This document shows, one piece after another, positions 1 to 31,208 of a stretch of 57,346 nt of DNA. The notes beneath the pieces were generated by a model. It did not search any database. It had not been told where the DNA came from and saw only the letters and a program-made list of their open reading frames with translations. The stretch is taken from IMG/VR virus record IMGVR_UViG_2597490083_000002, one strand, 5' to 3'. The position numbers and the translations under genes were made by a program. The DNA is from a virus. Lineage: Duplodnaviria; Heunggongvirae; Uroviricota; Caudoviricetes. How positions within the stretch are numbered: the stretch's first letter is position 1; every line of letters starts with the position of its first letter.

Positions 1-561
1 TCAAAACTGAAAGCGCATCCAGGCAAAGTACACATTGCCATTGTTGTAGGTACCCGGAATGTAGGTCATCTGAAAAGTCACTGGGCCATAACCCACGGAG
101 GCCAATGGCAGTAGAACCGGGAGAGGGATGTAATTCCAGTTATCGCGTGCCGTTACGCCAGCGGTGAATCCCAGACCTAAATGAAAATTTTCATCCGCCA
201 GCGGTCGCCAGGTACTTTCCCATCCGTATCCGGCAATCGGTTCCCATTTGTTCCACGAGTCCTTAAATGCCATGGCATACAGGCCATGCCAGTTTCCTTT
301 TTCATCCCAACGCGACAGGCCAAAACCGCCACCCCACGGTCGCTCGTTATAGCGATCGGTTTTTTCTTTGTCGTAAGCGAAACGTGCATGCCAGGTGATG
401 GCAGGAATATATAAATCATAATGTTCAGGCTGTTGCCAGGTTTGTGCAATATTTTCTCTAAACGTTGTCATCCTCTCATCTGCGTTAGCAAAAACTTTAC
501 CAACGCTGATTAACTGAATAAAAACAAAGGAAAAGATAGCGACATATTTACTCACGTTCAT
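1..561 (-). CDS. pagP: Lipid A palmitoyltransferase PagP (CrcA)
   Basis: ORF 1..585 matches PagP along its length; start placed at internal [10 protein letters not shown] (186 aa), the signal-peptide start I recall for PagP. Confidence 0.9.
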
Positions 562-1149
562 TTGTGACCATAAAACATTTATCAAAAATCTACTACTAGC
601 ATAGCAAAGCTACAATTAACATAACCTTAATAGACCCAACATAAAGAATAATCTGAATAGCTGCTCTATTTATTTCCGCTTGTTCAAGTTAAATATTTCC
701 GCGCATCGATTAAAGATGATGCGTCGTTTTCTGCGATGGGAATAGTCAAAAAAGAAAAACCAAGTCTTTTTTGATGACAAAATGCAATCAAGGAAAAATT
801 ATTTTATTTTTTTAACGAGATACAACAATCATCTTAACGAAGTATATAATATATATCGTCAACCCATGCTCATATTAGATTATTTTTTGAGCGCACAGCC
901 GCAGCTAACACCATTGCAATTAACAAATTTGCATCAATCCACCATCAATTTACACACATTATTATGTGATAATTGCCAACCGCTAAATATGCGTTTTGTT
1001 ATCTATGTATAAAAACAGCAACTTCAATGTCTTAATGGCAGTTTTTCTTGATTTTAATCAGCATTCATCGCCAATTTATTGGGCATATTTTTTCCTTAAG
1101 CTTTAGGAAGTTTTTATTATTTACTTTGGGCCTGGAGACAGGAAAAATT

Positions 1150-2535
1150 ATGCTGACATTCATTGAACTCCTTATTGGGGTTGTGGTTATTGTGGGTGTG
1201 GCTCGCTACATCATTAAAGGGTATTCCGCCACTGGTGTGTTATTTGTCGGTGGCCTGTTATTGCTGATTATCAGTGCCATTATGGGGCACAAAGTGTTAC
1301 CGTCCAGCCAGGCTTCAACAGGCTACAGCGCCACGGATATCGTTGAATACGTTAAAATATTACTAATGAGCCGCGGCGGCGACCTCGGCATGATGATTAT
1401 GATGCTGTGTGGCTTTGCCGCTTACATGACCCATATCGGCGCGAATGATATGGTGGTCAAGCTGGCGTCAAAACCATTGCAGTATATTAACTCCCCTTAC
1501 CTGCTGATGATTGCCGCCTATTTTGTTGCTTGTCTGATGTCACTGGCCGTCTCTTCCGCAACCGGTCTGGGGGTTTTGCTGATGGCAACCCTGTTTCCGG
1601 TGATGGTAAACGTTGGTATCAGTCGTGGCGCAGCAGCTGCCATTTGTGCCTCCCCGGCGGCGATTATTCTCGCACCGACTTCAGGGGATGTGGTGCTGGC
1701 GGCGCAGGCTTCCGAAATGTCGCTGATTGACTTCGCCTTCAAAACGACGCTGCCTATCTCAATTGCTGCAATTATCGGCATGGCGATCGCCCACTTCTTC
1801 TGGCAACGTTATCTGGATAAAAAAGAGCACATCTCTCATGAAATGTTAGATGTCAGTGAAATCACCACCACTGCCCCCGCGTTTTATGCCATTTTGCCGT
1901 TCACGCCGATCATCGGTGTACTGATTTTTGACGGTAAATGGGGTCCGCAATTACACATCATCACTATTCTGGTGATTTGTATGCTGATTGCCTCCATTCT
2001 GGAGTTCCTCCGCAGCTTTAATACCCAGAAAGTTTTCTCTGGTCTGGAAGTGGCTTATCGCGGGATGGCAGATGCGTTTGCTAACGTGGTGATGCTGCTG
2101 GTTGCCGCTGGGGTATTCGCTCAGGGGCTTAGCACCATCGGCTTTATTCAAAGTCTGATTTCTATCGCTACCTCGTTTGGTTCGGCGAGTATCATCCTGA
2201 TGCTGGTATTGGTGATTCTGACCATGCTGGCGGCAGTCACGACCGGTTCAGGCAATGCGCCGTTTTATGCGTTTGTTGAGATGATCCCGAAACTGGCGCA
2301 CTCTTCCGGCATTAACCCGGCGTATTTGACTATCCCGATGCTGCAGGCGTCAAACCTGGGTCGTACCCTATCACCCGTTTCTGGCGTAGTCGTTGCGGTT
2401 GCCGGGATGGCGAAAATCTCACCATTTGAAGTCGTAAAACGCACCTCGGTGCCGGTGCTTGTTGGGCTAGTGATTGTTATCGTTGCTACAGAGCTGATGG
2501 TGCCAGGAACGGCAGCAGCGGTCACAGGCAAGTAA
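1150..2535 (+). CDS. dcuC: Anaerobic C4-dicarboxylate transporter DcuC
   Basis: ORF 1048..2535; recognised DcuC N-terminus MLTFIELLIGVVV at 1150 after AGGAAA; 461 aa polytopic membrane protein, convergent with dpiA fragment as in E. coli. Confidence 0.9.
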   Translation: MLTFIELLIGVVVIVGVARYIIKGYSATGVLFVGGLLLLIISAIMGHKVLPSSQASTGYSATDIVEYVKILLMSRGGDLGMMIMMLCGFAAYMTHIGANDMVVKLASKPLQYINSPYLLMIAAYFVACLMSLAVSSATGLGVLLMATLFPVMVNVGISRGAAAAICASPAAIILAPTSGDVVLAAQASEMSLIDFAFKTTLPISIAAIIGMAIAHFFWQRYLDKKEHISHEMLDVSEITTTAPAFYAILPFTPIIGVLIFDGKWGPQLHIITILVICMLIASILEFLRSFNTQKVFSGLEVAYRGMADAFANVVMLLVAAGVFAQGLSTIGFIQSLISIATSFGSASIILMLVLVILTMLAAVTTGSGNAPFYAFVEMIPKLAHSSGINPAYLTIPMLQASNLGRTLSPVSGVVVAVAGMAKISPFEVVKRTSVPVLVGLVIVIVATELMVPGTAAAVTGK

Positions 2536-2543
2536 ATAGTAAT

Positions 2544-2570
2544 GCCGGAGGCAAGTTTCCTCCGGCTTTA
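2544..2570. terminator. Hairpin plus T-run between convergent dcuC and dpiA
   Basis: gccggagg-caagtttc-cctccggc followed by ttta; lies between the two convergent 3' ends. Confidence 0.45.
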
Positions 2571-2575
2571 TCATG

Positions 2576-2917
2576 TCACCCACTGTGGTATATGCGTTGT
2601 GGTCTGCCAACTTTGCCGTGAACAATTTCAGCAATAATCAGATGGCGGCTGGCGCAATATTCAAGATAACGCCTGGCAGTGGTGCGGCTGATGGTCAGTG
2701 CCTGCGCCACCGTTTCTGCCGTATGTTGCACACCAGGCTCTTTAAACAGTTTTCGCACCGCGTTTAGCGTCAAGGGGTCAATGCCGGTCGGCAGTTCGTC
2801 TTTGGGTTCACCGCGAGCATAGGCATTAAACATCTCATCAATTTGCTTCTGGCTGGCGCTATCAATACTTTCCAGCATATGTTTACGCTGGCGGAAACGG
2901 GTTAGCGTTTGCCCCAG
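2576..2917 (-). pseudogene. dpiA: dpiA (citB) response regulator, 3' fragment; 5' part displaced by Mu-like insertion
   Basis: ORF 2576..2878 has the winged-helix C-terminus (TTARRYLEYCASRHLIIAEIVHGKVGRPQRIYHSG); reading frame runs up to 2917 where Mu-type end sequence begins. Confidence 0.75.
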
Positions 2918-3254
2918 TGTATTGATTCACTTGAAGTACGAAAAAACCGGGAGAACATTGGATTATTCGGGATCTGATGGGATTAGATTTGGTGGGGCTT
3001 GCAAGCCTGTAGTACAAATTTTAGGCGTTAACCAATGAAACGCGAAAGATAGTAAAAAATTGCTTTTGTTTCATTGAAAAAACGAAAAACAAAAACACTA
3101 TAAATCATTTCAATCATAGCTTCAAAAAACGTTCAAAACCGATAACAACCAGGCTGTCATCAAATGACTCATATCACAAATCAGCTCATGCCGTTTAGGT
3201 ATGTTACATGTGTGATTATGTGAGGTGAAGTATGTTTTAGCTGGCTCATGGTTG
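2918..3254. promoter_or_regulatory. Mu-like attL terminal region (expected transposase end-binding sites)
   Basis: Position and sequence resemblance to the Mu left end as I recall it; individual binding sites not resolved. Confidence 0.45.
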
Positions 3255-3764
3255 TTATACGGCTTTTTTCGCATCTTGTGGTTCCAACAAAGGAGCTACA
3301 GGCTCTTCCTGTTTATGAACACCATACATTGACAAAATCTCTTGGCGAGTTTCTGGAGGTAATTTATGCAGCGCCAAAGCTGTTTGTAGTGTTTGGCGAT
3401 CAATACCCAGCGTTGCCAATAGGGTGTCAACGGAGATGGAGGGGCGTTCTTGCATTAATCCGGAAAGCCCATATTTAGCCATGTTTAGCTCTATCTCTCG
3501 GACTTCATTTTCTCCTAGTTTATTGATTAACAGGGAGAACATTTTCAATGTATCAGCATTCATTTCTTCGATAGCAATTTTTTGCATAGCCGGTATTGCC
3601 GGGATATATTCAACCCCAGGCCCGCGACGCCCTTCTTGTGAACGCTTCGGCCATCCTTCTTTCTTTGCTCGTTTATGCACCCCCTGTATTGTCCCAGGCA
3701 TTCCATCCAGTTCAGTAATTTGTTTGGGTGTCATCCACTGGTTTATCTCATTTGCGCTTTTCAT
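3255..3764 (-). CDS. Mu-like repressor c
   Basis: 169 aa; N-terminal winged-helix similar to the transposase N-terminus (GMPGTIQGVHKRAKKEGWPKR); C-terminus ...EILSMYGVHKQEEPVAPLLEPQDAKKAV resembles Mu Repc tail. Confidence 0.8.
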   Translation of the reverse strand: MKSANEINQWMTPKQITELDGMPGTIQGVHKRAKKEGWPKRSQEGRRGPGVEYIPAIPAMQKIAIEEMNADTLKMFSLLINKLGENEVREIELNMAKYGLSGLMQERPSISVDTLLATLGIDRQTLQTALALHKLPPETRQEILSMYGVHKQEEPVAPLLEPQDAKKAV

Positions 3765-3935
3765 AAACTAAGTTTACCAGATTTATCTATATAAAAATCA
3801 ATGGATTACAAAATAAACCACATTAACTGATATAAACCGGTTTGGTTTATTTGGTAATGTATAAAACAGATAATCAAGACGAATTATTTGTTTTGGTAAC
3901 CCTTTATCATACGCAATATGGTTGGTGTGCGAAAG
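3765..3935. promoter_or_regulatory. Divergent c / ner-A control region (operator and early promoter expected)
   Basis: AT-rich intergenic region between divergent repressor and ner; by analogy to the Mu O1-O3/Pe region. Confidence 0.4.
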
Positions 3936-4172
3936 ATGAGTAACGATTGGCATCGGGCCGACGTGATTGCGGCCCTCAAAAAAACAGGAACCCCTCTGGC
4001 AAAATTGTCCAGACGTTCAGGTTATTCAACCGGGACGCTTGCAAATGCATTAGTCAGGCCATGGCCTAAAGGTGAACGCATTATTGCTGACGCCTTAAAC
4101 ATGAAACCTGAGGAAATTTGGCCTAGTAGATATCTAAGGGATCACAATGAGAGAGTGGATATCAGCAATTGA
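3936..4172 (+). CDS. ner: Ner-like DNA-binding protein
   Basis: [13 protein letters not shown]...TLANAL...WPKGE..IA.AL...PE.IWPSRY matches Ner family; start at MSNDW inside ORF 3918..4172. Confidence 0.8.
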
Positions 4173-5781
4173 ATGCATGGGTTTATCTGGTTTACCTGGT
4201 TCATTAATGGGGGTTCACAAAAGAGCTCAGAGAGAAGGATGGCTCAAGAGAAGAAGAGAAGGAATTAGAGGGGTTGCTTACGAATACCATATATCTTCTC
4301 TTCCTAACATTGCTCGAGCTGAAGTTTTGCTCCAACAAGGAAAATTTAAAACCAGTCAGGGATGTTTTGAAATCGCCCGCCCCACGCTGGAAGCTCATGA
4401 TTATGATCGTGAGGCACTATGGAGCAAATGGGATAAAGCCAGCGATTCCCAGCGCAGCCTGGCTGAAAAATGGTTGCCCTCAATTCAGGCCACAGACGAA
4501 ATGCTGAACCAGGGGATTTCAACGAAAACGGCTTTTGCGACCGTTGCAGGGCATTACCAGGTCAGCGCATCCACTTTGCGGGACAAGTATTACCAGGTAC
4601 AGAAGTTTGCGAAGCCTGACTGGGCGGCTGCACTTGTTGATGGACGTGGAGCATCCCGTCGCAATGTTCACAAAAGTGAATTTGACGAGGATGCCTGGCA
4701 GTTTCTGATTGCAGATTATCTGCGACCGGAAAAACCCGCCTTCCGCAAATGTTATGAGCGTCTGGAACTGGCAGCCCGCGAGCATGGCTGGAGTATTCCC
4801 TCCCGTGCCACGGCCTTTCGCCGGATTCAGCAACTGGACGAGGCAATGGTTGTTGCCTGTCGTGAAGGTGAACATGCACTGATGCATCTGATACCGGCAC
4901 AGCAGCGAACTGTGGAACACCTGGACGCCATGCAGTGGATCAACGGCGACGGTTATCTGCATAACGTCTTTGTACGCTGGTTTAACGGTGATGTGATCCG
5001 TCCGAAAACATGGTTCTGGCAGGATGTGAAAACCCGAAAAATTCTGGGCTGGCGCTGCGATGTGAGCGAGAACATTGATTCAATTCGCCTCTCGTTCATG
5101 GATGTTGTGACTCGCTACAGTATCCCGGAGGATTTTCACATCACCATTGATAACACCCGTGGTGCTGCGAATAAATGGCTGACGGGAGGCGCGCCCAATC
5201 GCTACCGCTTTAAGGTAAAAGAGGACGATCCAAAAGGACTGTTTTTACTGATGGGTGCGAAAATGCACTGGACAAGCGTTGTTGCCGGTAAAGGCTGGGG
5301 CCAGGCAAAACCTGTTGAACGTGCTTTCGGTGTTGGTGGGCTTGAGGAATACGTTGATAAGCATCCGGCACTGGCTGGCGCATATACGGGGCCAAATCCG
5401 CAGGCAAAACCTGATAACTATGGCGACCACGCTGTTGATGCAGAGCTGTTTCTGAAAACCTTTGCCGAAGGTGTGGCGATGTTCAATGCCAGAACAGGCC
5501 GTGAAACAGAAATGTGCGGGGGCAAACTCTCGTTTGATGATGTTTTCGAGCGTGAATACGCCAGAACGATTGTGCGTAAGCCAACCGAAGAACAAAAACG
5601 GATGCTGTTACTGCCTGCCGAGGCGGTGAACGTTTCACGCAAAGGCGAGTTTACGCTTAAAGTTGGCGGCTCCCTTAAAGGCGCGAAAAACGTTTATTAC
5701 AACATGGCATTAATGAATGCCGGAGTGAAAAAAGTTGTGGTCAGATTTGATCCACAGCAGTTACACAGCACGGTTTATTGA
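4147..5781 (+). pseudogene. Mu-type DDE transposase A, truncated at residue 544 by IS600
   Basis: Strong identity to MuA as I recall it, through ...[15 protein letters not shown]; the stop codon TGA is the first 3 nt of the IS600 terminal repeat; C-terminal domain absent. Confidence 0.85.
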
Positions 5782-5842
5782 GATAGCCTGAGTTTAACGG
5801 ACACTCCTTCCTGAAATAGAATGGCATCAGAAGGAGCTAATA

Positions 5843-6145
5843 ATGAGCAGAAAAACCCAACGTTACTCTAAAGAGTTCAAAGCCGAAGCTGTCAGAACGG
5901 TTCTTGAAAATCAACTTTCGATCAGTGAAGGCGCTTCCCGATTATCCCTTCCTGAAGGCACTTTAGGACAATGGGTTACCGCCGCCAGAAAAGGGCTCGG
6001 TACTCCTGGTTCCCGCACGGTGGCTGAACTGGAATCTGAAATTCTGCAACTGCGTAAGGCGTTAAATGAAGCTCGCCTTGAGCGCGATATATTAAAAAAA
6101 GCAACAGCGTATTTTGCACAGGAGTCGCTGAAAAATACGCGTTAA
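5843..6145 (+). CDS. IS600 OrfA
   Basis: 100-aa HTH/leucine-zipper protein; identical copies at 20399..20701(-) and 29973..30275(+). Confidence 0.9.
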   Translation: MSRKTQRYSKEFKAEAVRTVLENQLSISEGASRLSLPEGTLGQWVTAARKGLGTPGSRTVAELESEILQLRKALNEARLERDILKKATAYFAQESLKNTR

Positions 6146-6180
6146 TCGAACAATGGCGACAACAATTTCCCATTGAAGCG

Positions 6181-6999
6181 ATGTGTCAGGTATTTGGTGT
6201 ATCCAGGAGCGGTTATTACAACTGGGTACAGCATGAACCCTCAGACAGAAAACAAAGTGATGAGCGGCTAAAACTGGAGATTAAGGTGGCACATATCCGC
6301 ACTCGCGAAACATATGGAACCCGGCGGCTCCAGACGGAGCTGGCAGAGAATGGCATCATCGTTGGTCGTGACCGACTGGCACGTCTTCGTAAGGAGCTGA
6401 GGCTACGCTGTAAGCAGAAACGCAAGTTCAGAGCGACTACGAACCCGAACCACAATCTGCCAGTTGCGCCAAATCTGCTGAACCAGACGTTCGCTCCTAC
6501 AGCACCAAATCAGGTCTGGGTGGCGGACCTGACGTATGTTGCCACACAGGAGGGATGGTTGTACCTCGCTGGCATCAAAGATGTTTATACGTGCGAAATT
6601 GTCGGCTACGCCATGGGAGAGCGCATGACAAAAGAGCTGACAGGTAAAGCCCTGTTTATGGCGCTCAGGAGCCAGCGCCCACCTGCCGGGCTAATCCACC
6701 ACTCTGATCGAGGTTCACAGTACTGCGCATACGATTACCGGGTCATACAGGAGCAGTCTGGTCTGAAAACATCAATGTCGCGTAAAGGTAACTGTTACGA
6801 CAACGCTCCGATGGAAAGCTTCTGGGGAACGCTGAAAAATGAGAGCCTGAGCCACTATCGTTTTAATAACCGGGATGAAGCCATCTCAGTAATACGGGAA
6901 TACATTGAGATTTTCTACAATCGTCAGCGTCGTCACTCTCGTCTGGGGAATATCTCCCCGGCAGCCTTCAGGGAAAAATATCATCAGATGGCTGCTTAA
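6181..6999 (+). CDS. IS600 OrfB (DDE catalytic domain; normally made as OrfAB by -1 frameshift)
   Basis: 272-aa IS3-family integrase-core ORF; identical copies elsewhere in window. Confidence 0.9.
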   Translation: MCQVFGVSRSGYYNWVQHEPSDRKQSDERLKLEIKVAHIRTRETYGTRRLQTELAENGIIVGRDRLARLRKELRLRCKQKRKFRATTNPNHNLPVAPNLLNQTFAPTAPNQVWVADLTYVATQEGWLYLAGIKDVYTCEIVGYAMGERMTKELTGKALFMALRSQRPPAGLIHHSDRGSQYCAYDYRVIQEQSGLKTSMSRKGNCYDNAPMESFWGTLKNESLSHYRFNNRDEAISVIREYIEIFYNRQRRHSRLGNISPAAFREKYHQMAA

Positions 7000-7042
7000 A
7001 AAAAGAACAAATGGTAGTGTCCGCTATTGCCAGTACACCTCA

Positions 7043-7241
7043 ATTCTTTGGCATTTTTTACCTCGTTACGCGCGTCTGTGGCTTTGCCAACGGATACTTC
7101 CGCGTGCGCACGAGTGAACCAGTGCGTGGCAACGTCTTCCTCCACAACATGACGGCCTTTAACAAACTCGCGCCGAGAACCGTCGGGAAGCGTGAGCACA
7201 AACGGGGTATGTACGTGTATTACTGCATCATTTTTTGCCAT
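7043..7241 (-). pseudogene. Hypothetical phage protein, 3' end removed by IS600
   Basis: ORF 6996..7241 runs into the IS600 right end; phage-derived part is 7043..7241, directly upstream of the capsid gene. Confidence 0.4.
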
Positions 7242-7282: not shown

Positions 7283-8224
7283 TTAAATGCCATCAACGTA
7301 CGAAATGGTTTCTTTGTACACTGGCTCGACTGCACCCAGCTTGCCGTAGTAAGTGACGATCTGATACAGACCGCGATACTGCACCGGCACGCTCTGAAGC
7401 GGAACCAGCGGGTAGCGGACGTATTTTTTATCGTTGGTGTACGCAACTATGCGATCCTTATTCCCCACACCACGGCCTTTCAGCCATTTAACCGCGCGGA
7501 TATTCAGCGGAACACCGTTCTGGTGATAGCTGATGGTGTTGGTCTGAAGGTTCGTCAACAGGGACTGGTTACCTGCAGATGAAACGATGATGCTGGACAA
7601 CAGAGCAAACTGCTCAGGCGGGATCAGCAAATCACGCGGAACCACAGAGTAACCAGAAGCGGCCCACGCATCAGACAGCACCTGGTTAATGCTTGCGCGG
7701 ATTTCGTCCGGTGTTGAGGTTGCCCACGTTTTGGCAGCGTTGTTGACAGGCACGCCGTCCAGGGTAACAAGGCCTTTCAGGTTTAATGCGGAATCGCCAA
7801 CATATACCTGTTCATCGTTATCCATCTGCCATTTCAGTTGCATACCGTCATACTTCTGCGTATCAATCGGGCGGCCGACCTGCTGAGCAGCCTGCAATTC
7901 TATGACCGTCCAGCCAAGTTCCATCCCCCACAGGTTCAGCGGGTTACCGGATTTGCCGATATCCACGTTCACGCCAGCAATAGCGGTTGAGTCTTTGCCT
8001 ACCCAGTTTTTTCCATTCGGATTTGCGCCAGTACCCGCAGCGGCGAAGCTGGTATTCGTCCAGCTGGAAATGTCATCTGCGATGGAGGCGTCTTCACGCA
8101 GTTGAATATCGCGGCTCCAGGTGTACCCCACCAGTGGCAGGTTCAGCGTCTGGTCGAGTCTCTCCAGCTCCCCGATGAGAAAGGCACCAGAGCTGTCAAC
8201 GGTTGCCTGATCAAAAGTAATCAT
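7283..8224 (-). CDS. Putative phage major capsid protein
   Basis: 313 aa, last gene of a terS-terL-portal-head morphogenesis-scaffold-capsid order; assignment by position and composition, not a recognised named homolog. Confidence 0.55.
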   Translation of the reverse strand: MITFDQATVDSSGAFLIGELERLDQTLNLPLVGYTWSRDIQLREDASIADDISSWTNTSFAAAGTGANPNGKNWVGKDSTAIAGVNVDIGKSGNPLNLWGMELGWTVIELQAAQQVGRPIDTQKYDGMQLKWQMDNDEQVYVGDSALNLKGLVTLDGVPVNNAAKTWATSTPDEIRASINQVLSDAWAASGYSVVPRDLLIPPEQFALLSSIIVSSAGNQSLLTNLQTNTISYHQNGVPLNIRAVKWLKGRGVGNKDRIVAYTNDKKYVRYPLVPLQSVPVQYRGLYQIVTYYGKLGAVEPVYKETISYVDGI

Positions 8225-8368
8225 TCGTCTGTTCCTTAAATCTTCCAGGAAATTTCTGCATTGCCGTCAGCATCACCGGCACCTGTGAATTCAGCGTTGG
8301 TCAGCACCACGTTTTTGCCACTGACTGACGTGGACATGAATCCACCCAGAGGCACTTTGATGGATTCA

Positions 8369-8725
8369 TCAGTGGAGATCGCCTTTTTTGATAGTGCTGG
8401 CATCAAAATCAGAACCGAGATTAACGGTCACGTAGCCACGCTTCATGGCGTCGCCCGGGAAGTTCTTGCCTGTTCCCACCTGGCGAACCATGTCCGGCTG
8501 CGACGTGGTCGGATAAGGGCGCACGTAGATCCCCTTCACCTTGTCTGCGGTATCACCATCTGCCAGCGGCACGAAAAAACCGTCATCATCGTATTTACCA
8601 GCCAGGCCATAGGCAGCGAAGGCGTTATCGGATTTAAGGACCACCGGTTCGACGGTTAAGTCCTGCGGGCGAGAGACAGCCCCGGCAATGCCAACAGGCA
8701 TCCGGTACAGAAATACATTATTCAT
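8369..8725 (-). CDS. Phage head protein (hypothetical; decoration-like small protein)
   Basis: 118 aa between scaffold/protease-like gene and capsid gene. Confidence 0.35.
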   Translation of the reverse strand: MNNVFLYRMPVGIAGAVSRPQDLTVEPVVLKSDNAFAAYGLAGKYDDDGFFVPLADGDTADKVKGIYVRPYPTTSQPDMVRQVGTGKNFPGDAMKRGYVTVNLGSDFDASTIKKGDLH

Positions 8726-8728
8726 TTT

Positions 8729-9949
8729 TTACCCTTTACGGTTTGCCCAGAATTCAGCGTTTTGTTTGTTCAGGGAAGCGATACTGGTCATGCCCATGTT
8801 TAGGCGCTGTGCATCGCCGGTGGTGGCGCGGGTGTTTCGCCCTTTGGCAACCTCAGACACGGCATTAAACGCCATGTCGACCGATTGTTTCGGTAATTTG
8901 CGGATATCCGCATCACCGACTATCTGGCGAACCAGCGTTTTGTCAGCAGAAGCCAGAACCTCGCGTTTGAACGCGGTCGGTTTCATCTTACGGCTCAGAT
9001 CGATACCCGGAACGATAACTTCGGCACGCCAGGCTGAGTCACCAGTAATCGTGGTTTCCTCTTCATCGTCCTCGCCGTCACCGGTCGGATTATCGTCAGG
9101 CTTATTATCGTTATCGCCCGTGGCATTTCTTTCCAGCTTAGCCAGCAGGGCTTTCAGTAATGTTTTGAGGTCATCATCACTGTCGCCGGTTGGATCTCCG
9201 CCCATCTCTGGTGCTTTGTCCGGTAGTGGTTGCTGCGGGGACAGGTTGATGTTGAGATTAACGCCCTGCGGCAAATCCCCCTCATCTCCTGTAACCGATG
9301 CGGGAGCCGACTCCACCAGTTCGTTCATGGTGTCGGCATCTCCTGTCTTGATGGCCGCACGCATGCGGTTCCACCAGTTTTTCTTTTGATTTGCCATTGT
9401 GTCTCTGTCTCCAATTGCACAACGATTTCCGGCTCTGCCTTTAGGGACAAGAGCCACATGGTTTCCGGTAATATCGACCTGCTCGGCTTTACCTGGCTCG
9501 GTCTGCTCGTACTCCGCGTCATAGCCGCACGACACTTCGCGCAGGCCATCTTCGATAAGCTGAATGGCGCTTTCGTCTTTGACGATAAGGTCAGCCAGCA
9601 TCAAATCAGACTGCTCACCCGTCCCGCGCCGGACATTCTGGAGGTGCCCGACAGCAAGCACTTTCCAGTTCTCGGGATTTACCAGCCGCACATTCCCGTT
9701 TTCATCTTCAGGATGCAGGATCGTGATGCTCATCCCTTCGAATGAGGCAAGCGTGGCCGGATGGAATACCTGCTCAGGAGAACGCGTGACGACTATTTCA
9801 ACGAACTTATCGGGTTTCAGTTTTGGCAGGTCATCAGCACCATAGAGCTGCTTACCTGTTCGTCCTATCGGCACGTCTTTGCACAGCAACGAGCCGTCAG
9901 CCAGGCGGTATCGGGTTTCCCCGAGCCTGGTCTCAAAAAAGTATTTCAT
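8729..9949 (-). CDS. Putative head scaffold/maturation protein
   Basis: 406 aa with long acidic low-complexity central tract (GDSDDDL...GDGEDDEEETT), typical of scaffold-type proteins; position between head-morphogenesis and capsid genes. Confidence 0.45.
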   Translation of the reverse strand: MKYFFETRLGETRYRLADGSLLCKDVPIGRTGKQLYGADDLPKLKPDKFVEIVVTRSPEQVFHPATLASFEGMSITILHPEDENGNVRLVNPENWKVLAVGHLQNVRRGTGEQSDLMLADLIVKDESAIQLIEDGLREVSCGYDAEYEQTEPGKAEQVDITGNHVALVPKGRAGNRCAIGDRDTMANQKKNWWNRMRAAIKTGDADTMNELVESAPASVTGDEGDLPQGVNLNINLSPQQPLPDKAPEMGGDPTGDSDDDLKTLLKALLAKLERNATGDNDNKPDDNPTGDGEDDEEETTITGDSAWRAEVIVPGIDLSRKMKPTAFKREVLASADKTLVRQIVGDADIRKLPKQSVDMAFNAVSEVAKGRNTRATTGDAQRLNMGMTSIASLNKQNAEFWANRKG

Positions 9950-9952
9950 GGG

Positions 9953-10735
9953 TTATGCTGCCCTTTTCATTGCGAATGGAACGCGAACAAACACGATCTC
10001 TTTATAGCAGCGGCAGTTTGGCAGCTCGCCCGCGTGGCCGGTCATGCCGTCCAAAGTTGGAGGTGAATCCCAGCGGACGAATTTACCTTTCATGTGATCG
10101 TGGGAATCTCGGACATCGCCATCATCGGCTGTACGCCAAATATAACCATCCGAGCCAATAGCTATCGCTCGGGCCATATCCAGCGCGCCCGTTGCTCTTC
10201 CCAGTTCCGTTCGGGCAATCAGATCGGCCCTAGACTTAGCAACATCGCCGGTAGATGCAATCTCTTTAGCAAACTGCTCCGCCCGACCACCGGTGACAAC
10301 AGCCTCTATCGCTTTGTTCTGGATGTCGTACACCCTGTCTGCGGCCTCGAGAGGCAGAGATTTGATGTACTTGACCTGTTCGGCGATGATGGATTGCATC
10401 ACCTGGCCCACAGGAGCGCTTTCCACAAGATTGCGGAGCTCGCGACTGATGTTCTTGCTGTGTTGCCGCCAAACTTTCTCGTTCTGCCGGGTTAGGTCCG
10501 CAGTAAAGTTTTCCGCGACCTTTGTCGCCCAGGGGGTGATGATTTCACTGTAACGCTCCAGCGCCGCAATAATTTCCGTGATACTGTCATTTGAACCATC
10601 GTAGCGACCATTTACGATGTCTCCGACCGCCCTCGCTATCCTGCGTAGGCTGGTTCGATACCGGATTTCCGCCTGACGGCTCCTGCGGTTCGTCATCAGG
10701 TTCGCCGATGCCGGGCGGCGCTTCATCTTCGGCAT
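9953..10735 (-). CDS. Phage head morphogenesis protein (Mu F / SPP1 gp7-like)
   Basis: 260 aa; placed directly after portal; true start may be an internal Met because the ORF overlaps the portal 3' end. Confidence 0.6.
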   Translation of the reverse strand: MPKMKRRPASANLMTNRRSRQAEIRYRTSLRRIARAVGDIVNGRYDGSNDSITEIIAALERYSEIITPWATKVAENFTADLTRQNEKVWRQHSKNISRELRNLVESAPVGQVMQSIIAEQVKYIKSLPLEAADRVYDIQNKAIEAVVTGGRAEQFAKEIASTGDVAKSRADLIARTELGRATGALDMARAIAIGSDGYIWRTADDGDVRDSHDHMKGKFVRWDSPPTLDGMTGHAGELPNCRCYKEIVFVRVPFAMKRAA

Positions 10736-12053
10736 TCTCGATGTCCTCGTTGGTAATGGATGCCCCTATGCCGGTTACGTCAGAATTTTCTCGCAAATCA
10801 GTCATAGCGGCTTTCAGTGTCATCAGACCATCACCCATCGCCGTACTGATTGCGTTGGTGGTGTTTAACGCCACCGTTGAGCGATCGACATCAGACATTT
10901 GCCAGAGCGGGTTAAACTCAAACGTGAAATCGTCCGGCAGCGGCTTGCCAAGTTCCGAACGATGCATGATGTCCAGTATCCGCCGCACCGGAAGACGTAA
11001 ACGCCTCTCCTGCAACGAACTGATGCGATCGTAATAGTTGGCAAGGTCTGCATCACCGGTAGAAAATCCTTTCGGGGACTGTCCGAACAACCGCACCAGT
11101 GGGATACCAACAGCGCCACTAATCTGTTCTGCAAACTGCGAAAGGATGTCATCCAGACCACTGAAGCTGTACTGATGGGTTTCAAACTTATCCCGCGAGT
11201 CCATGAGCGTCATGCCTTCATTACTCTGGAACTGTCGAATCAGGTCGATATTCTTCAGCAACGCTTCATACGCAGGACCACCAAGTGCGATAAGCTCGCG
11301 TAGCTTCTCCACGCTGTAGGTACGCAAATGCGCCTTGTAGACCAGCTGCGCCGCGCCGACAGTAGCGCTGTCGAACGCGGTAAGACGATCCCAGATACGC
11401 TCTACAACCGACATTCCCCATTCGTTCTCGGTCATCTTCTGCTGAAATGGCAACGTGACGCCATCAAAGCGAATCAGGCGACTGTGATGAATGCGCCAGG
11501 CAGGAATTCCCGTTGCTGTGGTCACCACATCGTAAAACTCAGGTTTACCCAGGTCCGGCCCCATATCTTTAATGCGGCGGGTCAGTGCCGGGTCGACCAT
11601 CCAGCGGTCGAGCGGGAGAATCCCCTTAAACTTGCCCTTACCGATGGTTTCGGGTCGCAGCGGGGTCATTGGTGCCTGCCCCTCAATCATGATGAAACCC
11701 ACCGCGCCGCCGTAGAGGCGCGACCATTTCAGCACGTCATTCAGCGCATCCCAGATTTGCAACTCATCCAGTTGTGATTCGAGAATGCCACGATCTTTTG
11801 CATCAATTTCCGAAGTGATGCGAATGCCTTTGCGGGTCATATCATCCGGGATAGCATCGACTGCTTCGCCGATGATCCAGGATGAACGATAGGACCATTC
11901 CACCAGCATGCGGTTACGACTGGTGAAATTAGCCCGGTAGGTGGATGCTGAGTGCTGGTTAGGTGTCTGCATCCCTACTCGGGCAATAAAATTCTCATAA
12001 CCATCAGCTGTGGCCTGCACAGTTCGCCGCAGGGCTTGTTTGTTTCGTGCCAT
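10587..12053 (-). CDS. Phage portal protein
   Basis: 488 aa immediately downstream of terminase large subunit; size and position typical of portal. Confidence 0.6.
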   Translation of the reverse strand: MARNKQALRRTVQATADGYENFIARVGMQTPNQHSASTYRANFTSRNRMLVEWSYRSSWIIGEAVDAIPDDMTRKGIRITSEIDAKDRGILESQLDELQIWDALNDVLKWSRLYGGAVGFIMIEGQAPMTPLRPETIGKGKFKGILPLDRWMVDPALTRRIKDMGPDLGKPEFYDVVTTATGIPAWRIHHSRLIRFDGVTLPFQQKMTENEWGMSVVERIWDRLTAFDSATVGAAQLVYKAHLRTYSVEKLRELIALGGPAYEALLKNIDLIRQFQSNEGMTLMDSRDKFETHQYSFSGLDDILSQFAEQISGAVGIPLVRLFGQSPKGFSTGDADLANYYDRISSLQERRLRLPVRRILDIMHRSELGKPLPDDFTFEFNPLWQMSDVDRSTVALNTTNAISTAMGDGLMTLKAAMTDLRENSDVTGIGASITNEDIENAEDEAPPGIGEPDDEPQEPSGGNPVSNQPTQDSEGGRRHRKWSLRWFK

Positions 12054-18422: not shown

Positions 18423-18499
18423 GGCCCTTTAGCTCAGTTGGTCAGAGCGAGCGACTCATAATCGCCAGGTCGCTGGTTCAAGTCCAGCAAGGGCCACCA
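18423..18499 (+). tRNA. tRNA with CAU anticodon (Ile2/Met type, ileZ-like)
   Basis: Hand fold: acceptor GGCCCTT, anticodon loop CUCAUAA, T-loop TTCAAGT, CCA encoded. Confidence 0.8.
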
Positions 18500-18500
18500 A

Positions 18501-18577
18501 CCACCACTAGCTCATCCGGATAGAGCATCAACCTTCTAAGTTGACGGTGCGAGGTTCGAGTCCTCGGTGGTGGGCCA
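18501..18577 (+). tRNA. tRNA-Arg (UCU), argN-like
   Basis: Acceptor CCACCAC/GTGGTGG, anticodon loop CUUCUAA, T-loop TTCGAGT. Confidence 0.85.
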
Positions 18578-18579
18578 GC

Positions 18580-18654
<75 letters not shown>

Positions 18655-18657
18655 TAT

Positions 18658-18732
<75 letters not shown>

Positions 18733-19501: not shown

Positions 19502-19544
19502 TGAGGTGTACTGGCAATAGCGGACACTACCATTTGTTCTTTTT

Positions 19545-20363
19545 TTAAGCAGCCATCTGATGATATTTTTCCCTGAAGGCTGCCGGGGAGATATTCCCCA
19601 GACGAGAGTGACGACGCTGACGATTGTAGAAAATCTCAATGTATTCCCGTATTACTGAGATGGCTTCATCCCGGTTATTAAAACGATAGTGGCTCAGGCT
19701 CTCATTTTTCAGCGTTCCCCAGAAGCTTTCCATCGGAGCGTTGTCGTAACAGTTACCTTTACGCGACATTGATGTTTTCAGACCAGACTGCTCCTGTATG
19801 ACCCGGTAATCGTATGCGCAGTACTGTGAACCTCGATCAGAGTGGTGGATTAGCCCGGCAGGTGGGCGCTGGCTCCTGAGCGCCATAAACAGGGCTTTAC
19901 CTGTCAGCTCTTTTGTCATGCGCTCTCCCATGGCGTAGCCGACAATTTCGCACGTATAAACATCTTTGATGCCAGCGAGGTACAACCATCCCTCCTGTGT
20001 GGCAACATACGTCAGGTCCGCCACCCAGACCTGATTTGGTGCTGTAGGAGCGAACGTCTGGTTCAGCAGATTTGGCGCAACTGGCAGATTGTGGTTCGGG
20101 TTCGTAGTCGCTCTGAACTTGCGTTTCTGCTTACAGCGTAGCCTCAGCTCCTTACGAAGACGTGCCAGTCGGTCACGACCAACGATGATGCCATTCTCTG
20201 CCAGCTCCGTCTGGAGCCGCCGGGTTCCATATGTTTCGCGAGTGCGGATATGTGCCACCTTAATCTCCAGTTTTAGCCGCTCATCACTTTGTTTTCTGTC
20301 TGAGGGTTCATGCTGTACCCAGTTGTAATAACCGCTCCTGGATACACCAAATACCTGACACAT
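19545..20363 (-). CDS. IS600 OrfB
   Basis: Identical 272-aa ORF. Confidence 0.9.
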   Translation of the reverse strand: MCQVFGVSRSGYYNWVQHEPSDRKQSDERLKLEIKVAHIRTRETYGTRRLQTELAENGIIVGRDRLARLRKELRLRCKQKRKFRATTNPNHNLPVAPNLLNQTFAPTAPNQVWVADLTYVATQEGWLYLAGIKDVYTCEIVGYAMGERMTKELTGKALFMALRSQRPPAGLIHHSDRGSQYCAYDYRVIQEQSGLKTSMSRKGNCYDNAPMESFWGTLKNESLSHYRFNNRDEAISVIREYIEIFYNRQRRHSRLGNISPAAFREKYHQMAA

Positions 20364-20398
20364 CGCTTCAATGGGAAATTGTTGTCGCCATTGTTCGA

Positions 20399-20701
20399 TT
20401 AACGCGTATTTTTCAGCGACTCCTGTGCAAAATACGCTGTTGCTTTTTTTAATATATCTCGCTCAAGGCGAGCTTCATTTAACGCCTTACGCAGTTGCAG
20501 AATTTCAGATTCCAGTTCAGCCACCGTGCGGGAACCAGGAGTACCGAGCCCTTTTCTGGCGGCGGTAACCCATTGTCCTAAAGTGCCTTCAGGAAGGGAT
20601 AATCGGGAAGCGCCTTCACTGATCGAAAGTTGATTTTCAAGAACCGTTCTGACAGCTTCGGCTTTGAACTCTTTAGAGTAACGTTGGGTTTTTCTGCTCA
20701 T
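20399..20701 (-). CDS. IS600 OrfA
   Basis: Near-identical 100-aa ORF. Confidence 0.9.
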   Translation of the reverse strand: MSRKTQRYSKEFKAEAVRTVLENQLSISEGASRLSLPEGTLGQWVTAARKGLGTPGSRTVAELESEILQLRKALNEARLERDILKKATAYFAQESLKNTR

Positions 20702-20976
20702 TATTAGCTCCTTCTGATGCCATTCTATTTCAGGAAGGAGTGTCCGTTAAACTCAGGCTACCTCAGTCAGCGCTGGAACGACGAGAAGCCAGAAACCATT
20801 CAACCACAATCCAGACCATCATCCGCAATCACCGTATCGAAAACTGGCTATGTGTTTTTCGACAGGTGAACCATGAAATCAAAAATCAAATCGCTACTGG
20901 TCGCTGGTTATAACCACGGCTGGTTAAGTATTTCGTTTGTCGATTTCTGGTTTAAAAATCTCAATCTGAGGGAATC

Positions 20977-22801
20977 ATGAGGCCAAGTGAACTTAGCGAC
21001 CTGCTTTGGGCGCAGGTTGACAGGGTGGCTCCGCACCTGTTGCCAAACGGCAAGATAGAGGGGCATGAGTGGGTTGCCGGTAACGTCAACGGTGACAAGG
21101 GAAACAGCCTTAAGGTCAACCTTATCGGCAAGAAAAAATGGGCTGATTTCGCTGAGGGAGACGGCGGTGACATGCTTGATTTGTGGATGGCATGTCGTGG
21201 AATTAACCTGCATCAGGCTATGCAGGAAGCGAAAGCATTTCTCGGTATCAAGGATGACGATCACCATTTCGATGCCAGACGTGAGAAGAAATTCTCCAGA
21301 CCTGATCGTAAGAAAATCGCCCGCTACGTTACCAGAACAGAATCCCATCTTGAGTACCTGCAATCGCGTGGCATATCGCCAGAAGTCGTAAAGCGCTACG
21401 AGGTTGTCAGCGGCAAGGTGTGGAATGGAGAACGAGAACTGGATGCTCTGGTGCTTCCGTACAAACGCGATGGTGAGTTGTTGCAGGTCAAGCGAATCAG
21501 CACTGAGCGCCCGGACGGGAAGAAAGTCATTATGGCAGAAGGTGATTGCGAACCTTGCCTGTTCGGATGGCAGGCTCTGGACGCTGGCGTGAGGGTGGTT
21601 GTGCTTTGCGAAGGCGAAATTGATTGTATGAGCTATGCGCAATACGGCATCTCGGCGTTATCCGTGCCGTTTGGTGGCGGGAAAGGCGCTAAGCAACAGT
21701 GGATTGAGTTTGAGTATCACAACCTCGACAGGTTTGAGGAAATATTCATCTCGATGGACGTTGATGATGTTGGTCGTGAAGCCGCAAGGGAAATCGTAAG
21801 CCGACTCGGTGAACATCGTTGCCGTCTTGTTACTCTGCCGTACAAAGACATCAACGAATGCCTGATGAACGGTGTTACCGAGGATGAAATCTGGCAGTAC
21901 ATCGGCACGGCATCCTACTTCGATCCTGAAGAACTCTACAGTGCGCGAGAGTTTTACCAGGACACTATCAACGCTTTCTACGGCAAGCAGCAGTATCTGT
22001 TTAATCCACCGTGGGAATCTCTGGCAGATAAATTCCAGTTCCGTGAGGCAGAGTTGACGCTGGTCAATGGTGTGCACGGTCACGGAAAGGCATGCCCACT
22101 GAATGAGCCTATTCTTTTAGCTGATGGGACATGGACTACTCACGGGAATGTAAAAATTGGCGATCAGGTGGCGTCAGTAGACGGCAATCCGTCAACTGTC
22201 ACTGGGATATTCCCGCAGGGTGTTAGAGATGTTTACCGAGTCACATTTGAAGATGGTCGTTATGTTGATTGCGCAGGCGATCACCTATGGGAGGTCACTA
22301 GTCGTGGATTCACGAAAGGCGAGAAACGCCGCGTGATAGATACCTTCGGGTTGAAGCGGTTGAGTGAAACGAAGAGGCACAAAAATGGCGTTAGGATTCC
22401 TGAAATAACTGGTGACTTTGGCGACCACTCAGAGCCATTAGCATGGGTTATCGGCTCCCTTCTCGGGGATGGTAGTCTTAGCAATGGGAGCGTGAAGTTT
22501 TCAAACGTCGAGCCATACATGATCGAGCGTATGAAGGCTGAACTGCCTGATTACAACTTCTCTGGAGATGGTAAGGACTGGCTGATATCAACGGCGCGTG
22601 GTCAGGTAAATCCACTCATGGAGACCCTGCGAGGTTATGGACTAATGGGGTGCACAGCAAAAAACAAATTCATCCCTCGTGTGTTTTTTTCCGCAAATAA
22701 ATCAACGCGTATAGGCATGCTGTGTGGTCTGCTTGAAACGGATGGGTATGTCGAGAAGGATGGAACGCTTGTTTTTTCCTCAGCAAGTGAAGAACTGCGC
22801 A
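20977..22801 (+). pseudogene. Phage toprim-type DNA primase / P-loop NTPase carrying an intein-like insertion; 3' end removed by IS911
   Basis: Toprim-like acidic motifs (VVVLCEGEIDCMSY, FISMDVDDVG); Walker-A-like GVHGHGK followed from Cys at 22093 by Hint-like and LAGLIDADG-like motifs; ORF continues into IS911 at 22802. Confidence 0.65.
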
Positions 22802-22810
22802 ATGAAGTGG

Positions 22811-23979
<1,169 letters not shown>

Positions 23980-27459: not shown

Positions 27460-27536
27460 GGCCCTTTAGCTCAGTTGGTCAGAGCGAGCGACTCATAATC
27501 GCCAGGTCGCTGGTTCAAGTCCAGCAAGGGCCACCA
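27460..27536 (+). tRNA. tRNA with CAU anticodon (Ile2/Met type)
   Basis: Identical to 18423..18499. Confidence 0.8.
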
Positions 27537-27537
27537 A

Positions 27538-27614
27538 CCACCACTAGCTCATCCGGATAGAGCATCAACCTTCTAAGTTGACGGTGCGAGGTTCGAGTCC
27601 TCGGTGGTGGGCCA
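27538..27614 (+). tRNA. tRNA-Arg (UCU)
   Basis: Identical to 18501..18577. Confidence 0.85.
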
Positions 27615-27616
27615 GC

Positions 27617-27692
<76 letters not shown>

Positions 27693-27695
27693 TAT

Positions 27696-27770
<75 letters not shown>

Positions 27771-29908: not shown

Positions 29909-29972
29909 TGAGGTAGCCTGAGTTTAACGGACACTCCTTCCTGAAATAGAATGGCATCAGAAGGAGCTAATA

Positions 29973-30275
29973 ATGAGCAGAAAAACCCAACGTTACTCTA
30001 AAGAGTTCAAAGCCGAAGCTGTCAGAACGGTTCTTGAAAATCAACTTTCGATCAGTGAAGGCGCTTCCCGATTATCTCTTCCTGAAGGCACTTTAGGACA
30101 ATGGGTTACCGCCGCCAGAAAAGGGCTCGGTACTCCTGGTTCCCGCACGGTGGCTGAACTGGAATCTGAAATTCTGCAACTGCGTAAGGCGTTAAATGAA
30201 GCTCGCCTTGAGCGAGATATATTAAAAAAAGCAACAGCGTATTTTGCACAGGAGTCGCTGAAAAATACGCGTTAA
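29973..30275 (+). CDS. IS600 OrfA
   Basis: Identical 100-aa ORF. Confidence 0.9.
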   Translation: MSRKTQRYSKEFKAEAVRTVLENQLSISEGASRLSLPEGTLGQWVTAARKGLGTPGSRTVAELESEILQLRKALNEARLERDILKKATAYFAQESLKNTR

Positions 30276-30325
30276 TCGAACAATGAACCGCCCCGGGTTT
30301 CCTGGAGAGTGTTTTATCTGTGAAC

Positions 30326-31208
<883 letters not shown>

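Follow-up and report, generated by a model that had tools for sequence, protein, structure and literature searches.

Phage Mu (NC_000929.1) and its relatives D108 and SfMu are the closest described systems to the locus reported here. D108 and SfMu represent the known alternative type of immunity, and SfMu is the Mu-like phage that has been characterised from Shigella flexneri. In the annotated genomes of Mu, D108, SfMu and PhiR68_1, the repressor gene c lies on the minus strand and is followed by ner and the transposase gene A on the plus strand. Shigella flexneri is a known host of SfMu, and Mu remnants have been reported in this species (PMC4406740). The roles of the MuA domains have been described, and subdomain IIIalpha is required for activity (PMC3362531). 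Among bacterial genomes, a prophage inserted in yphC of Escherichia coli UMNF18 (NZ_AGTD01000001.1) appears complete at least through gemA and encodes a full length A protein of 662 aa.

We analysed a 57,346-nt stretch of DNA (the window) in which Mu-derived sequence follows pagP, dcuC and part of dpiA and is itself followed by a copy of IS600. This segment (the stump) is very probably a dead Mu-type left end, inserted in dpiA and cut by IS600, that is carried by S. flexneri at large. The features of the locus, in window coordinates, are as follows.

2576-2917, minus strand: 3' half of dpiA, 342 of 681 nt (codons 114-226 plus the stop codon), colinear with dpiA of E. coli AH62 up to 2917
2576-2878: longest ATG-initiated open reading frame in the dpiA remnant, 100 aa, with the DpiA HTH_64 domain (Pfam E = 3e-49)
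2918-3254, plus strand: Mu-type left end (attL), beginning TGTATTGATTCACTTGAAGTACG
2928-2944: L1, no mismatches to the MuA site consensus
3032-3048: L2, one mismatch to the MuA site consensus
near 3073-3089: L3-like site, one base different from Mu in L3
3255-3764, minus strand: c, repressor gene, intact, 169 aa (Pfam HTH_Tnp_Mu_1, E = 4.5e-12)
3364-4326: divergent immunity cassette, covering the greater part of c, the control region between c and ner, ner itself and the first 60 codons of A
3765-3935: control region between c and ner, holding candidate operators and candidate divergent promoters
3805-3820 and 3843-3858: arms of a 16-nt inverted repeat in the control region
3813, 3832 and 3844: ATAAACC/GGTTTAT motif, with a fourth copy at 3740, within c
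3850 and 3892: TTTGGTAA in the control region
3933-3906 and 3910-3883, minus strand: promoter-like sites
3936-4172, plus strand: ner, intact, 78 aa (Pfam HTH_35, E = 4e-29)
4147-5778, plus strand: truncated transposase gene A, 544 codons, corresponding to MuA residues 1-545 of 663
5779-7042, plus strand: IS600 (IS3 family), 1264 bp, with ends TGAG...CTCA
5843-6145 and 6181-6999: IS600 orfA and orfB (Pfam HTH_Tnp_1 and rve)

The pagP-dcuC-dpiA region of E. coli AH62 is colinear with positions 1-2917 of the window (99.2% identity). This colinearity breaks exactly at 2917, and position 2918 is base 1 of Mu, which bears out the Mu-type left terminus that the original prediction had placed in dpiA; the gene lies here at its native locus. 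The terminus aligned to Mu-family left ends, with Mu nt 1-447 on 2918-3363 (91.5% identity), and a second alignment placed Mu 1511-2964 on 4327-5780 (97.8% identity). Like Mu, the stump has the same terminal sequence and L1 site, and its attL is 96.2% identical to Mu nt 1-345, although the run of A residues after L1 is one shorter than in Mu. Identity to the other left ends is 74-81%, namely 74-79% for D108 and SfMu and 80.6% for the UMNF18 prophage, from which the stump differs in having an attL of Mu type. Three MuA consensus sites were found in the window against 0.49 expected, and none of 100 shuffled sequences reached three. The host pentamer before the terminus is CCCAG, which agrees with the known target preference of Mu; together with the exact terminus, it suggests that a Muvirus entered dpiA by transposition. 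The Mu right end (attR) and the 5-bp target duplication are absent from the window, and the stump holds 2.86 kb of the about 36.7 kb of Mu, with no right end, B gene or late genes.

Open reading frames and Pfam domains agree on c, ner and A in Mu order and orientation after the left terminus, as had been predicted, and the coordinates originally given for the elements were each exact or no more than 3 bases off. The c protein combines a Mu-type winged-helix N-terminus with a C-terminal ...KKAV tail. An in-frame ATG upstream of ner, at 3918, would yield a protein of 84 aa. The first 26 nt of A lie within the end of ner, as they do in the UMNF18 prophage. The repressor and transposase also share an N-terminal domain, as in Mu: residues 7-65 of c and residues 1-60 of A are 40% identical (E = 3e-14), in keeping with the common DNA-binding domain that the original prediction had noticed.

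The stump A protein matched HTH_Tnp_Mu_1 (residues 9-141), HTH_Tnp_Mu_2 (148-255), DDE_2 (256-472) and Mu-transpos_C (485-544). The DDE_2 domain is matched end to end (E = 1e-134), and the catalytic triad is invariant, with D268, D335 and E391 aligned to D269, D336 and E392 of Mu. In contrast, Mu-transpos_C is matched only over profile positions 1-50 of 61. The truncated protein is therefore an incomplete MuA homologue. It retains subdomains Ialpha, Ibeta and Igamma, IIalpha with its DDE triad and the larger part of IIbeta, whereas the remainder of IIbeta and the whole of domain III (IIIalpha and IIIbeta) are gone. The catalytic and C-terminal domains had both been predicted to be missing; the C-terminal loss stands, while the catalytic domain is present with its triad. 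Changes private to the stump A gene comprised 9 non-synonymous and 6 synonymous substitutions, against 6 non-synonymous and 18 synonymous summed over five intact relatives (Fisher p = 0.04), a pattern that fits relaxed constraint. This excess rests on 15 changes, and six of these cluster by the cassette boundary, where they may be mosaic sequence rather than decay.

We found that the stump is a mosaic. The attL and the 3' end of c are 96% identical to Mu and the core of A is about 97-98% identical to all Muviruses, and the immunity cassette is the gap between the two Mu alignments, flanked on both sides by ordinary Mu sequence. Codons 61-544 of A are 97% identical to Mu in protein and 97.8% in DNA. 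D108 and SfMu follow the same mosaic rule, whereby c, ner and the 5' end of A vary while the rest of A is 97.3% identical in protein to the stump, and the cassette boundaries fall where Mu and D108 classically differ, within c on one side and around A codon 60 on the other. The cassette itself lies outside the Mu immunity group (c 39%, Ner 59% and A residues 1-60 43% identical) and outside the D108/SfMu group (c 32-34%, Ner 53.5% and A residues 1-60 43-45%). Across Mu, D108, SfMu and PhiR68_1, identity was 28-39% for c and 49-59% for Ner; by tblastn, c was 35% identical to Mu and 28% to D108/SfMu. Divergence of c, Ner and A residues 1-60, together with that of attL, means that neither the left end nor the immunity region of the stump is a remnant of SfMu. 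The departure of ner and the A N-terminus from canonical Mu had been anticipated. The proposal that it marks a distinct Mu-family member holds for the ~1-kb immunity cassette but not for attL and the A core, which are ordinary Mu/D108/SfMu sequence.

The UMNF18 prophage has the same immunity type. Its c is 84.6%, its Ner 98.7% and its A residues 1-60 91.7% identical to those of the stump, and the control regions can be aligned. At the DNA level the cassette matched UMNF18 only (88.2% identity), which is one of 5426 complete E. coli genomes, and Salmonella proteins were 85-87% identical to c. The cassette is thus closest to that of the E. coli UMNF18 prophage and to those of Salmonella prophages (S. 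enterica homologues). Among phage records, none matched the cassette at the DNA level further in than its edges and none carried a repressor of this type, the best being 36% identical in amino acids. The repeats and motifs in the c-ner control region are candidate operators and promoters by position, by analogy with O1-O3, Pe and Pc of Mu; an Rfam search of 2500-7100 returned no RNA family. Because c, Ner and A residues 1-60 diverge, operator and enhancer specificity presumably differ from those of Mu. The cassette adds one more member to the small Mu/D108 mosaic series and could serve in studies of how the specificities of repressor, operator and transposase enhancer vary together.

On the right, IS600 supplies the stop codon of A with its first three bases (TGA, 5779-5781). 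The Mu-derived DNA therefore ends at 5778, and A is cut where the original prediction had it. We set the ends of IS600 by comparison with two further copies in the window; the element is 99.7-99.8% identical to other copies and to RefSeq-annotated IS600 elements. It is flanked by TAT on the left and ATT on the right with no 3-bp target duplication. The two other copies in the window lack one as well, which suggests that copies recombined or that adjacent DNA was deleted. From 7043 the sequence is a head module like that of vB_EcoM-689R2/SEN34, followed by lambdoid prophage DNA, with no similarity to Mu; the head genes at 7283-12053 are of 689R2/SEN34 type, with non-Mu capsid, portal and terminase genes on the opposite strand. 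A blastn search with the whole Mu genome retrieved no Mu DNA outside the stump anywhere in the window, and thus none past 5780, except a 98-nt match of 80% identity at 54356-54453. The B gene, semi-essential early genes, mor/C regulators and lysis, head and tail genes of Mu are absent from the window, consistent with the predicted loss of downstream Mu genes. The 98-nt match adjoins the tail-fibre gene of the lambdoid prophage.

Because the DNA to the right of IS600 is not Mu and the target duplication is missing, we infer that an IS600-mediated rearrangement took away the rest of the prophage. A Muvirus with a cassette unlike those of Mu, D108/SfMu and PhiR68_1 would have transposed into dpiA of an S. 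flexneri ancestor. A copy of IS600 would later have landed in, or recombined at, A codon 545, and a rearrangement at IS600 would have joined this codon to an unrelated prophage, so that the rest of A, B, the middle and late genes and the right end were lost from the dpiA locus. The remnant (attL, intact c, the control region, intact ner and a transposase without domain III) would then have been passed on by vertical descent, as a fixed trait of S. flexneri. With only one end and a transposase that lacks subdomain IIIalpha, the stump is presumably immobile. If any part is still active, it is most likely the repressor, which would shut the early promoter and could make the cell immune to Mu-like phages that arrive with matching operator specificity. 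On this account the stump is an ordinary decayed prophage that is unusual only in its set of repressor, Ner and transposase N-terminus, a set that no sequenced Mu-like phage shares. The locus would be correctly labelled as a pseudogenised dpiA plus a defective prophage, and it would mark an IS600-mediated rearrangement that parted dpiA from the DNA normally beside it. Users of Mu tools or Mu-like phages in Shigella would have a resident repressor and a truncated end-binding transposase to reckon with.

The stump is widespread in S. flexneri. Its exact 544-aa A product is indexed in 945 blocks of the collection, and among the matches listed the pagP-dcuC-dpiA'-c-ner-A'-IS600 context was present in all nine chromosomal or large contigs; the seven of these loci that extend past IS600 all run into the same capsid gene. 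Carriers include CP001383.1 and LM651928.1 (NCTC1, isolated in 1915). Among 10 strains compared over 2576-7100, nine had 0-3 substitutions, and the Mu-derived part showed no difference within c, ner or A. Three of the four polymorphisms in Mu-derived DNA, each in a different strain, lie within 16 bp of the candidate operator/early-promoter region (simulation p of about 4e-4). The natural variants of the control region are 3837T, 3844T and 3852C. The S. flexneri annotation already lists a putative repressor, a transcriptional regulator and a putative transposase here; a literature search found no paper on this dpiA stump locus.

While surveying the contexts of IS600 OrfB, we came upon another Mu left-end stump in S. 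flexneri, independent of the first and located in yeaW (CP026765.1). Like the dpiA stump, it has a Mu-type terminus and attL (94% identical to Mu), keeps a repressor gene, is truncated by IS600 and has lost adjacent DNA. Unlike the dpiA stump, it encodes a 202-aa repressor whose N-terminus is of HTH_3 type, and no transposase remains since ner is cut after about 31 codons. That the yeaW stump too ends at IS600, with neighbouring host genes missing, suggests that the same route of decay recurs. Apart from bringing this stump to light, the ten OrfB contexts included none in which Mu genes adjoin another IS600 copy.

An alternative, which we consider unlikely, is that the prophage is merely split, with an inversion between two IS600 copies having moved the remainder elsewhere in the chromosome. 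The 3' end of A, B, the late genes, attR, the 5' half of dpiA, dpiB and the cit genes would then lie at a reciprocal junction, with attR joined to CCCAG-CCGTTCATAGG. The layout of the window fits an IS-mediated inversion or translocation: the left part carries pagP, dcuC and dpiA in descending K-12 order, and the right end carries ybhB at the lambda attachment site. Recombination between IS600 copies also appears to be common here, as none of the three copies in the window has a target duplication. However, neither the MuA C-terminus nor the DpiA N-terminus, used as protein queries, retrieved clusters of Shigella-type fragments from a collection where the stump proteins are abundant, 155 of 194 S. 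flexneri strains yielded no PCR product for the SfMu mor-lysozyme or gin-mom regions (PMC4406740), and the yeaW stump arose by simple deletion that reaches into the host genes beside it. These arguments against a split are all indirect.

Candidates for the reciprocal fragment did not hold up. The MuA C-terminus matches were limited to fragments at contig ends, an A gene disrupted by IS10 and a construct-like contig, and a 117-aa match to the DpiA N-terminus was a frameshifted E. coli dpiA rather than a fusion to Mu. Several E. coli contigs with the MuA C-terminus start 2-5 nt from the IS600 site; we attribute these starts not to IS600 but to breaks in the assembly graph where co-resident Mu-like prophages differ by a TGT/TGC polymorphism. 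Patterns for the IS600/A 3' and attR/dpiA 5' junctions had no match in viral contigs or metagenomes, a search made uninformative by the absence of the known left junction from the metagenomes too.

Equally improbable in our estimation is that the stump was retained because it is useful, its repressor and perhaps an inactive transposase that binds phage ends acting against superinfecting Mu-like phages of the same immunity. The full length c and ner, unchanged in all strains compared, would be expected of such a module, as would the repressor gene kept in both independent stumps, every DNA-binding subdomain retained in the truncated A and the clustering of polymorphisms in the control region. 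Passive decay likewise predicts that the repressor is lost last, since its loss before that of the killing genes would be lethal. Strain divergence is also too low for showing selection, since with so little diversity among S. flexneri strains purifying selection on c or ner would go undetected, and phage pressure may be slight given the rarity of the immunity type noted above in E. coli genomes. The broader proposal that S. flexneri holds at least two IS600-ended Mu left-end stumps, each with its own repressor, as working anti-phage modules is more doubtful still. If it were true, the repressor of the dpiA stump would be expressed and would give immunity to transposable phages of the same type, a transposase that binds DNA without catalysing might interfere with these phages, and the substitution cluster in the control region would reflect ongoing selection on expression of the module.

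Two further alternatives are refuted. Engineered Mu derivatives often retain the left end, c, ner and part of A, and one construct-like contig was among the protein-search matches, but a laboratory mini-Mu/Mud construct or assembly chimera has essentially no chance of being correct, as many independent S. flexneri chromosomes, NCTC1 among them, share these junctions and the cassette is not that of the Mu c used in laboratory constructs. Plain insertion of IS600 into an otherwise intact prophage, which the end of the A reading frame exactly at the end of IS600 might suggest, is just as untenable in view of the non-Mu DNA from 7043 and the missing 3-bp duplication.

Southern blots with an SfMu probe showed common bands of 4.5 and about 3.5-3.7 kb (PMC4406740). 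The EcoRV fragments predicted for the stump are 2.8 and 3.8 kb, and the 3.8-kb fragment may be the smaller of these bands.

Up to base 2917 the window carries ordinary E. coli/Shigella backbone: pagP, dcuC and, from dpiA, the 3' half. This stretch matches E. coli AH62 at 99.2% identity, and its colinearity with that genome ends exactly at 2917. Phage Mu base 1 corresponds to window base 2918, and the Mu-type left terminus and the shortened dpiA of the original prediction are both borne out. What is left of dpiA, 342 of 681 nt, encodes the C-terminal HTH_64 domain, and disruption of this gene is the host-side effect of the Mu-family remnant (2918-5778, hereafter the stump). The host pentamer preceding the terminus, CCCAG, presumably agrees with Mu target preference. 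Two blocks align to Mu, namely Mu 1-447 with 2918-3363 (91.5%) and Mu 1511-2964 with 4327-5780 (97.8%). As had been proposed, the downstream Mu genes are absent from the window: apart from a 98-nt match at 54356-54453, the 57 kb hold no other Mu-like DNA. The MuA end-site consensus was matched 3 times in the window versus 0.49 expected, a number reached in 0 of 100 shuffles, and the L3 region differs from Mu at one base. Sites and genes of the stump are as follows.

2928-2944, L1, perfect match to the MuA end-site consensus
3032-3048, L2, MuA end-site consensus with one mismatch
3255-3764, minus strand, c, repressor of 169 aa with the Mu DNA-binding domain
3936-4172, ner, HTH_35 protein of 78 aa
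4147-5778, A, truncated transposase of 544 codons

The stump is a three-part mosaic. The attL together with the last ~36 codons of c is nearest to Mu (96.2%), with the Mu-like phages D108 and SfMu and the Mu-like prophage of E. coli UMNF18 at 74-81%. From about codon 61 of A, Mu, D108, SfMu, the Mu-like phage PhiR68_1 and UMNF18 are all 97-100% identical per 100-nt block. The remaining part, a cassette at 3364-4326 comprising most of c, the control region, ner and A codons 1-60, is nearest to the UMNF18 prophage (c 84.6%, Ner 98.7%, A residues 1-60 91.7%). The identity of c to its Mu, D108, SfMu and PhiR68_1 counterparts is only 32-39%; for Ner the range is 49-59% and for A residues 1-60 it is 43-45%, in keeping with the earlier remark that ner and the A N-terminus are unlike canonical Mu. 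The top match of the repressor among all phage records was 36%, and no cassette DNA match past its edges was found in 50,697 phage records. Among 5426 complete E. coli genomes the cassette was covered in UMNF18 alone; Salmonella enterica proteins are 85-87% identical relatives of the repressor.

The cassette edges, inside c and near A codon 60, coincide with the edges that separate Mu from D108. The cassette is a further allele in a mosaic system already known, and not a new kind of element. The sole new component is an immunity cassette absent from sequenced Mu-like phages. The proposal of a distinct Mu-family member thus holds for this cassette (c, ner, A 1-60) and fails for attL and the A core, which are ordinary Mu-type sequence. 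More distant relatives of the repressor's DNA-binding domain (proteins P0011-P0020) are ~215 aa long and fused to Peptidase_S24 (LexA/cI-type self-cleavage), an architecture that differs from the Mu, D108 and stump repressors.

Repressor and transposase N-termini have a common domain, as predicted (c versus the A N-terminal domain, 40% identity across 60 residues, E = 3e-14). However, A had also been thought to lack its catalytic domain, and this is incorrect. DDE_2 is complete (256-472, E = 1e-134) and preceded by HTH_Tnp_Mu_1 (9-141) and HTH_Tnp_Mu_2 (148-255), and the residues aligned with Mu D269, D336 and E392 are invariant between stump A and the Mu and UMNF18 A proteins. Mu-transpos_C was matched over 50 of 61 profile positions. 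The protein stops at Mu residue 545 of 663, and the end of subdomain IIbeta and the entire domain III are missing. In MuA, subdomain IIIalpha does not tolerate insertions or deletions and is required for transpososome structural transitions, and IIIbeta is the site of MuB and ClpX contacts (PMC3362531). Because domain III with these roles is lost, the stump A protein is predicted to be catalytically dead, yet it may still bind Mu ends and enhancer. Changes private to stump A are 9 non-synonymous and 6 synonymous, versus totals of 6 and 18 in five intact relatives (p = 0.04), and past nt 350 of A all three are non-synonymous (G325S, R428H, L439F). This would fit, as weak evidence, relaxed constraint after inactivation.

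With a single end and no domain III in its transposase, the stump should be unable to transpose. The repressor is the only plausible remaining activity: if made, it would silence the early promoter and could exclude Mu-like phages of the same immunity, and the truncated transposase might add interference. Retention of the repressor is equally predicted by passive decay, since losing it ahead of the prophage's killing genes is lethal to the host.

The control region (3765-3935) aligns with UMNF18 and not with Mu or D108. Within it lie an inverted repeat of 16 nt, recurring copies of an ATAAACC/GGTTTAT motif and promoter-like sites directed toward c; from their position, the repeats are candidate operators. 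Across 2576-7100 in ten strains, nine show 0-3 substitutions each and the tenth, ECMA0423, has additional differences, all in the dpiA part. The differences within Mu-derived DNA in these strains all lie outside c, ner and A, which tells little on selection since the S. flexneri strains are too alike. Of the four polymorphic sites in the Mu-derived 2.86 kb, three (3837, 3844 and 3852, each in a different one of the ten S. flexneri strains) sit within 16 bp, in the repeats proposed as operators and in the candidate early-promoter -35 region (p about 4e-4 for the clustering, by simulation).

A is ended by IS600, as predicted: the TGA stop of the A frame is the first IS600 triplet, which puts the last base of Mu DNA at 5778. 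Comparison with the two other copies in the window set the limits of this IS600.

5779-7042, IS600, 1264 bp, ends TGAG...CTCA, 99.7% identical to elements annotated IS600 by RefSeq
19502-20765, IS600
29909-32482, IS600, interrupted by a 1303-bp insertion (30286-31588)

The insertion in the third copy holds an ALIL frameshift pseudoknot (31138-31254, Rfam RF01497), a type of feature found in IS3-family elements. The first copy is bordered by TAT on its left and ATT on its right, with no 3-bp duplication, and target duplications are likewise lacking at the other two. From 7043, on the opposite strand, lie capsid, scaffold/protease, MuF-like protein, portal and terminase genes of vB_EcoM-689R2/SEN34 type, followed by IS-riddled lambdoid prophage DNA up to an ipaH gene and to ybhB, which lies at the lambda attachment site. 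This non-Mu right flank and the missing duplication rule out a simple insertion of IS600 within an intact prophage; IS600 marks a rearrangement that took away the rest of Mu from this locus.

We favour deletion of the rest of Mu, because decay by this route is seen twice, the other case being a further left-end stump of the Mu family. This stump (positions 1391-2598 of S. flexneri CP026765.1:1785379-1792197) has its Mu terminus in yeaW, and its attL and c 3' end are 94% identical to Mu. Its repressor is 202 aa long, has an N-terminus of HTH_3 type, ends in a Mu-like ...KKAV tail and differs from that of the dpiA stump. Its ner is cut by IS600 after about 31 codons, with yeaG beyond, which looks like a plain IS600-associated deletion and speaks against the alternative that an inversion moved the remainder of the dpiA prophage elsewhere in the genome. 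We consider such an inversion unlikely: indirect searches for the reciprocal junction were negative or uninformative, and 155 of 194 strains in the SfMu survey lacked a PCR product for the mor-lysozyme or gin-mom regions (PMC4406740).

The left junction was recovered from S. flexneri SFBU1023 (99.9% identity to window 1-6407) and from a record labelled E. coli ECMA0423, and the assembly collection indexes an identical 544-aa product in 945 blocks. Among the matches listed, all nine loci lie on S. flexneri chromosomes or large contigs and have the order pagP-dcuC-dpiA'-c-ner-A'-IS600 (primes denote truncated genes). All seven loci that reach past IS600, including CP001383.1 and LM651928.1 (NCTC1, a 1915 isolate), run into the same capsid gene. 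Public records already name the stump genes putative repressor, transcriptional regulator and putative transposase. Mu remnants are described as common in S. flexneri in the SfMu paper, which does not describe this locus (PMC4406740). The stump is an ordinary, widespread, previously annotated prophage remnant.

A ~0.5-kb repeat common to the yeaW and dpiA stumps may explain many 'partial' c proteins at draft contig ends. In several unrelated E. coli assemblies (loci L019-L022), contigs start 2-5 nt from the A position where S. flexneri has IS600, and in one contig an IS10 end has inserted about 22 nt upstream of it; both observations are probably due to breaks in assembly at a polymorphism together with coincidence. 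Frameshifted dpiA alleles with 117-aa and 161-aa products occur in many E. coli and metagenome entries (P0036-P0049; L024). Their frameshifts lie only a few codons from where Mu inserted, but they result from single-base changes without Mu DNA.

Elsewhere in the window, 20977-22836 (plus strand) is a 619-aa prophage primase-like ORF with Toprim_2 and weak Hint and LAGLIDADG matches, which suggests an intein or homing-endonuclease insert; it runs into an IS-type ORF beginning near 22811. At 54524-56287 and 56870-57346 (both minus strand), an IpaH-type type-III effector gene with LRR and NEL E3 ligase domains lies beside ybhB, where the lambdoid prophage has its tail-fibre end, on the lambda attachment-site side. 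A prophage tRNA cluster, Met-Arg-Thr-Gly, is present in two copies (18423-18732 and 27460-27770, plus strand), which indicates a neighbouring pair of lambdoid late-region fragments with IS elements between them.
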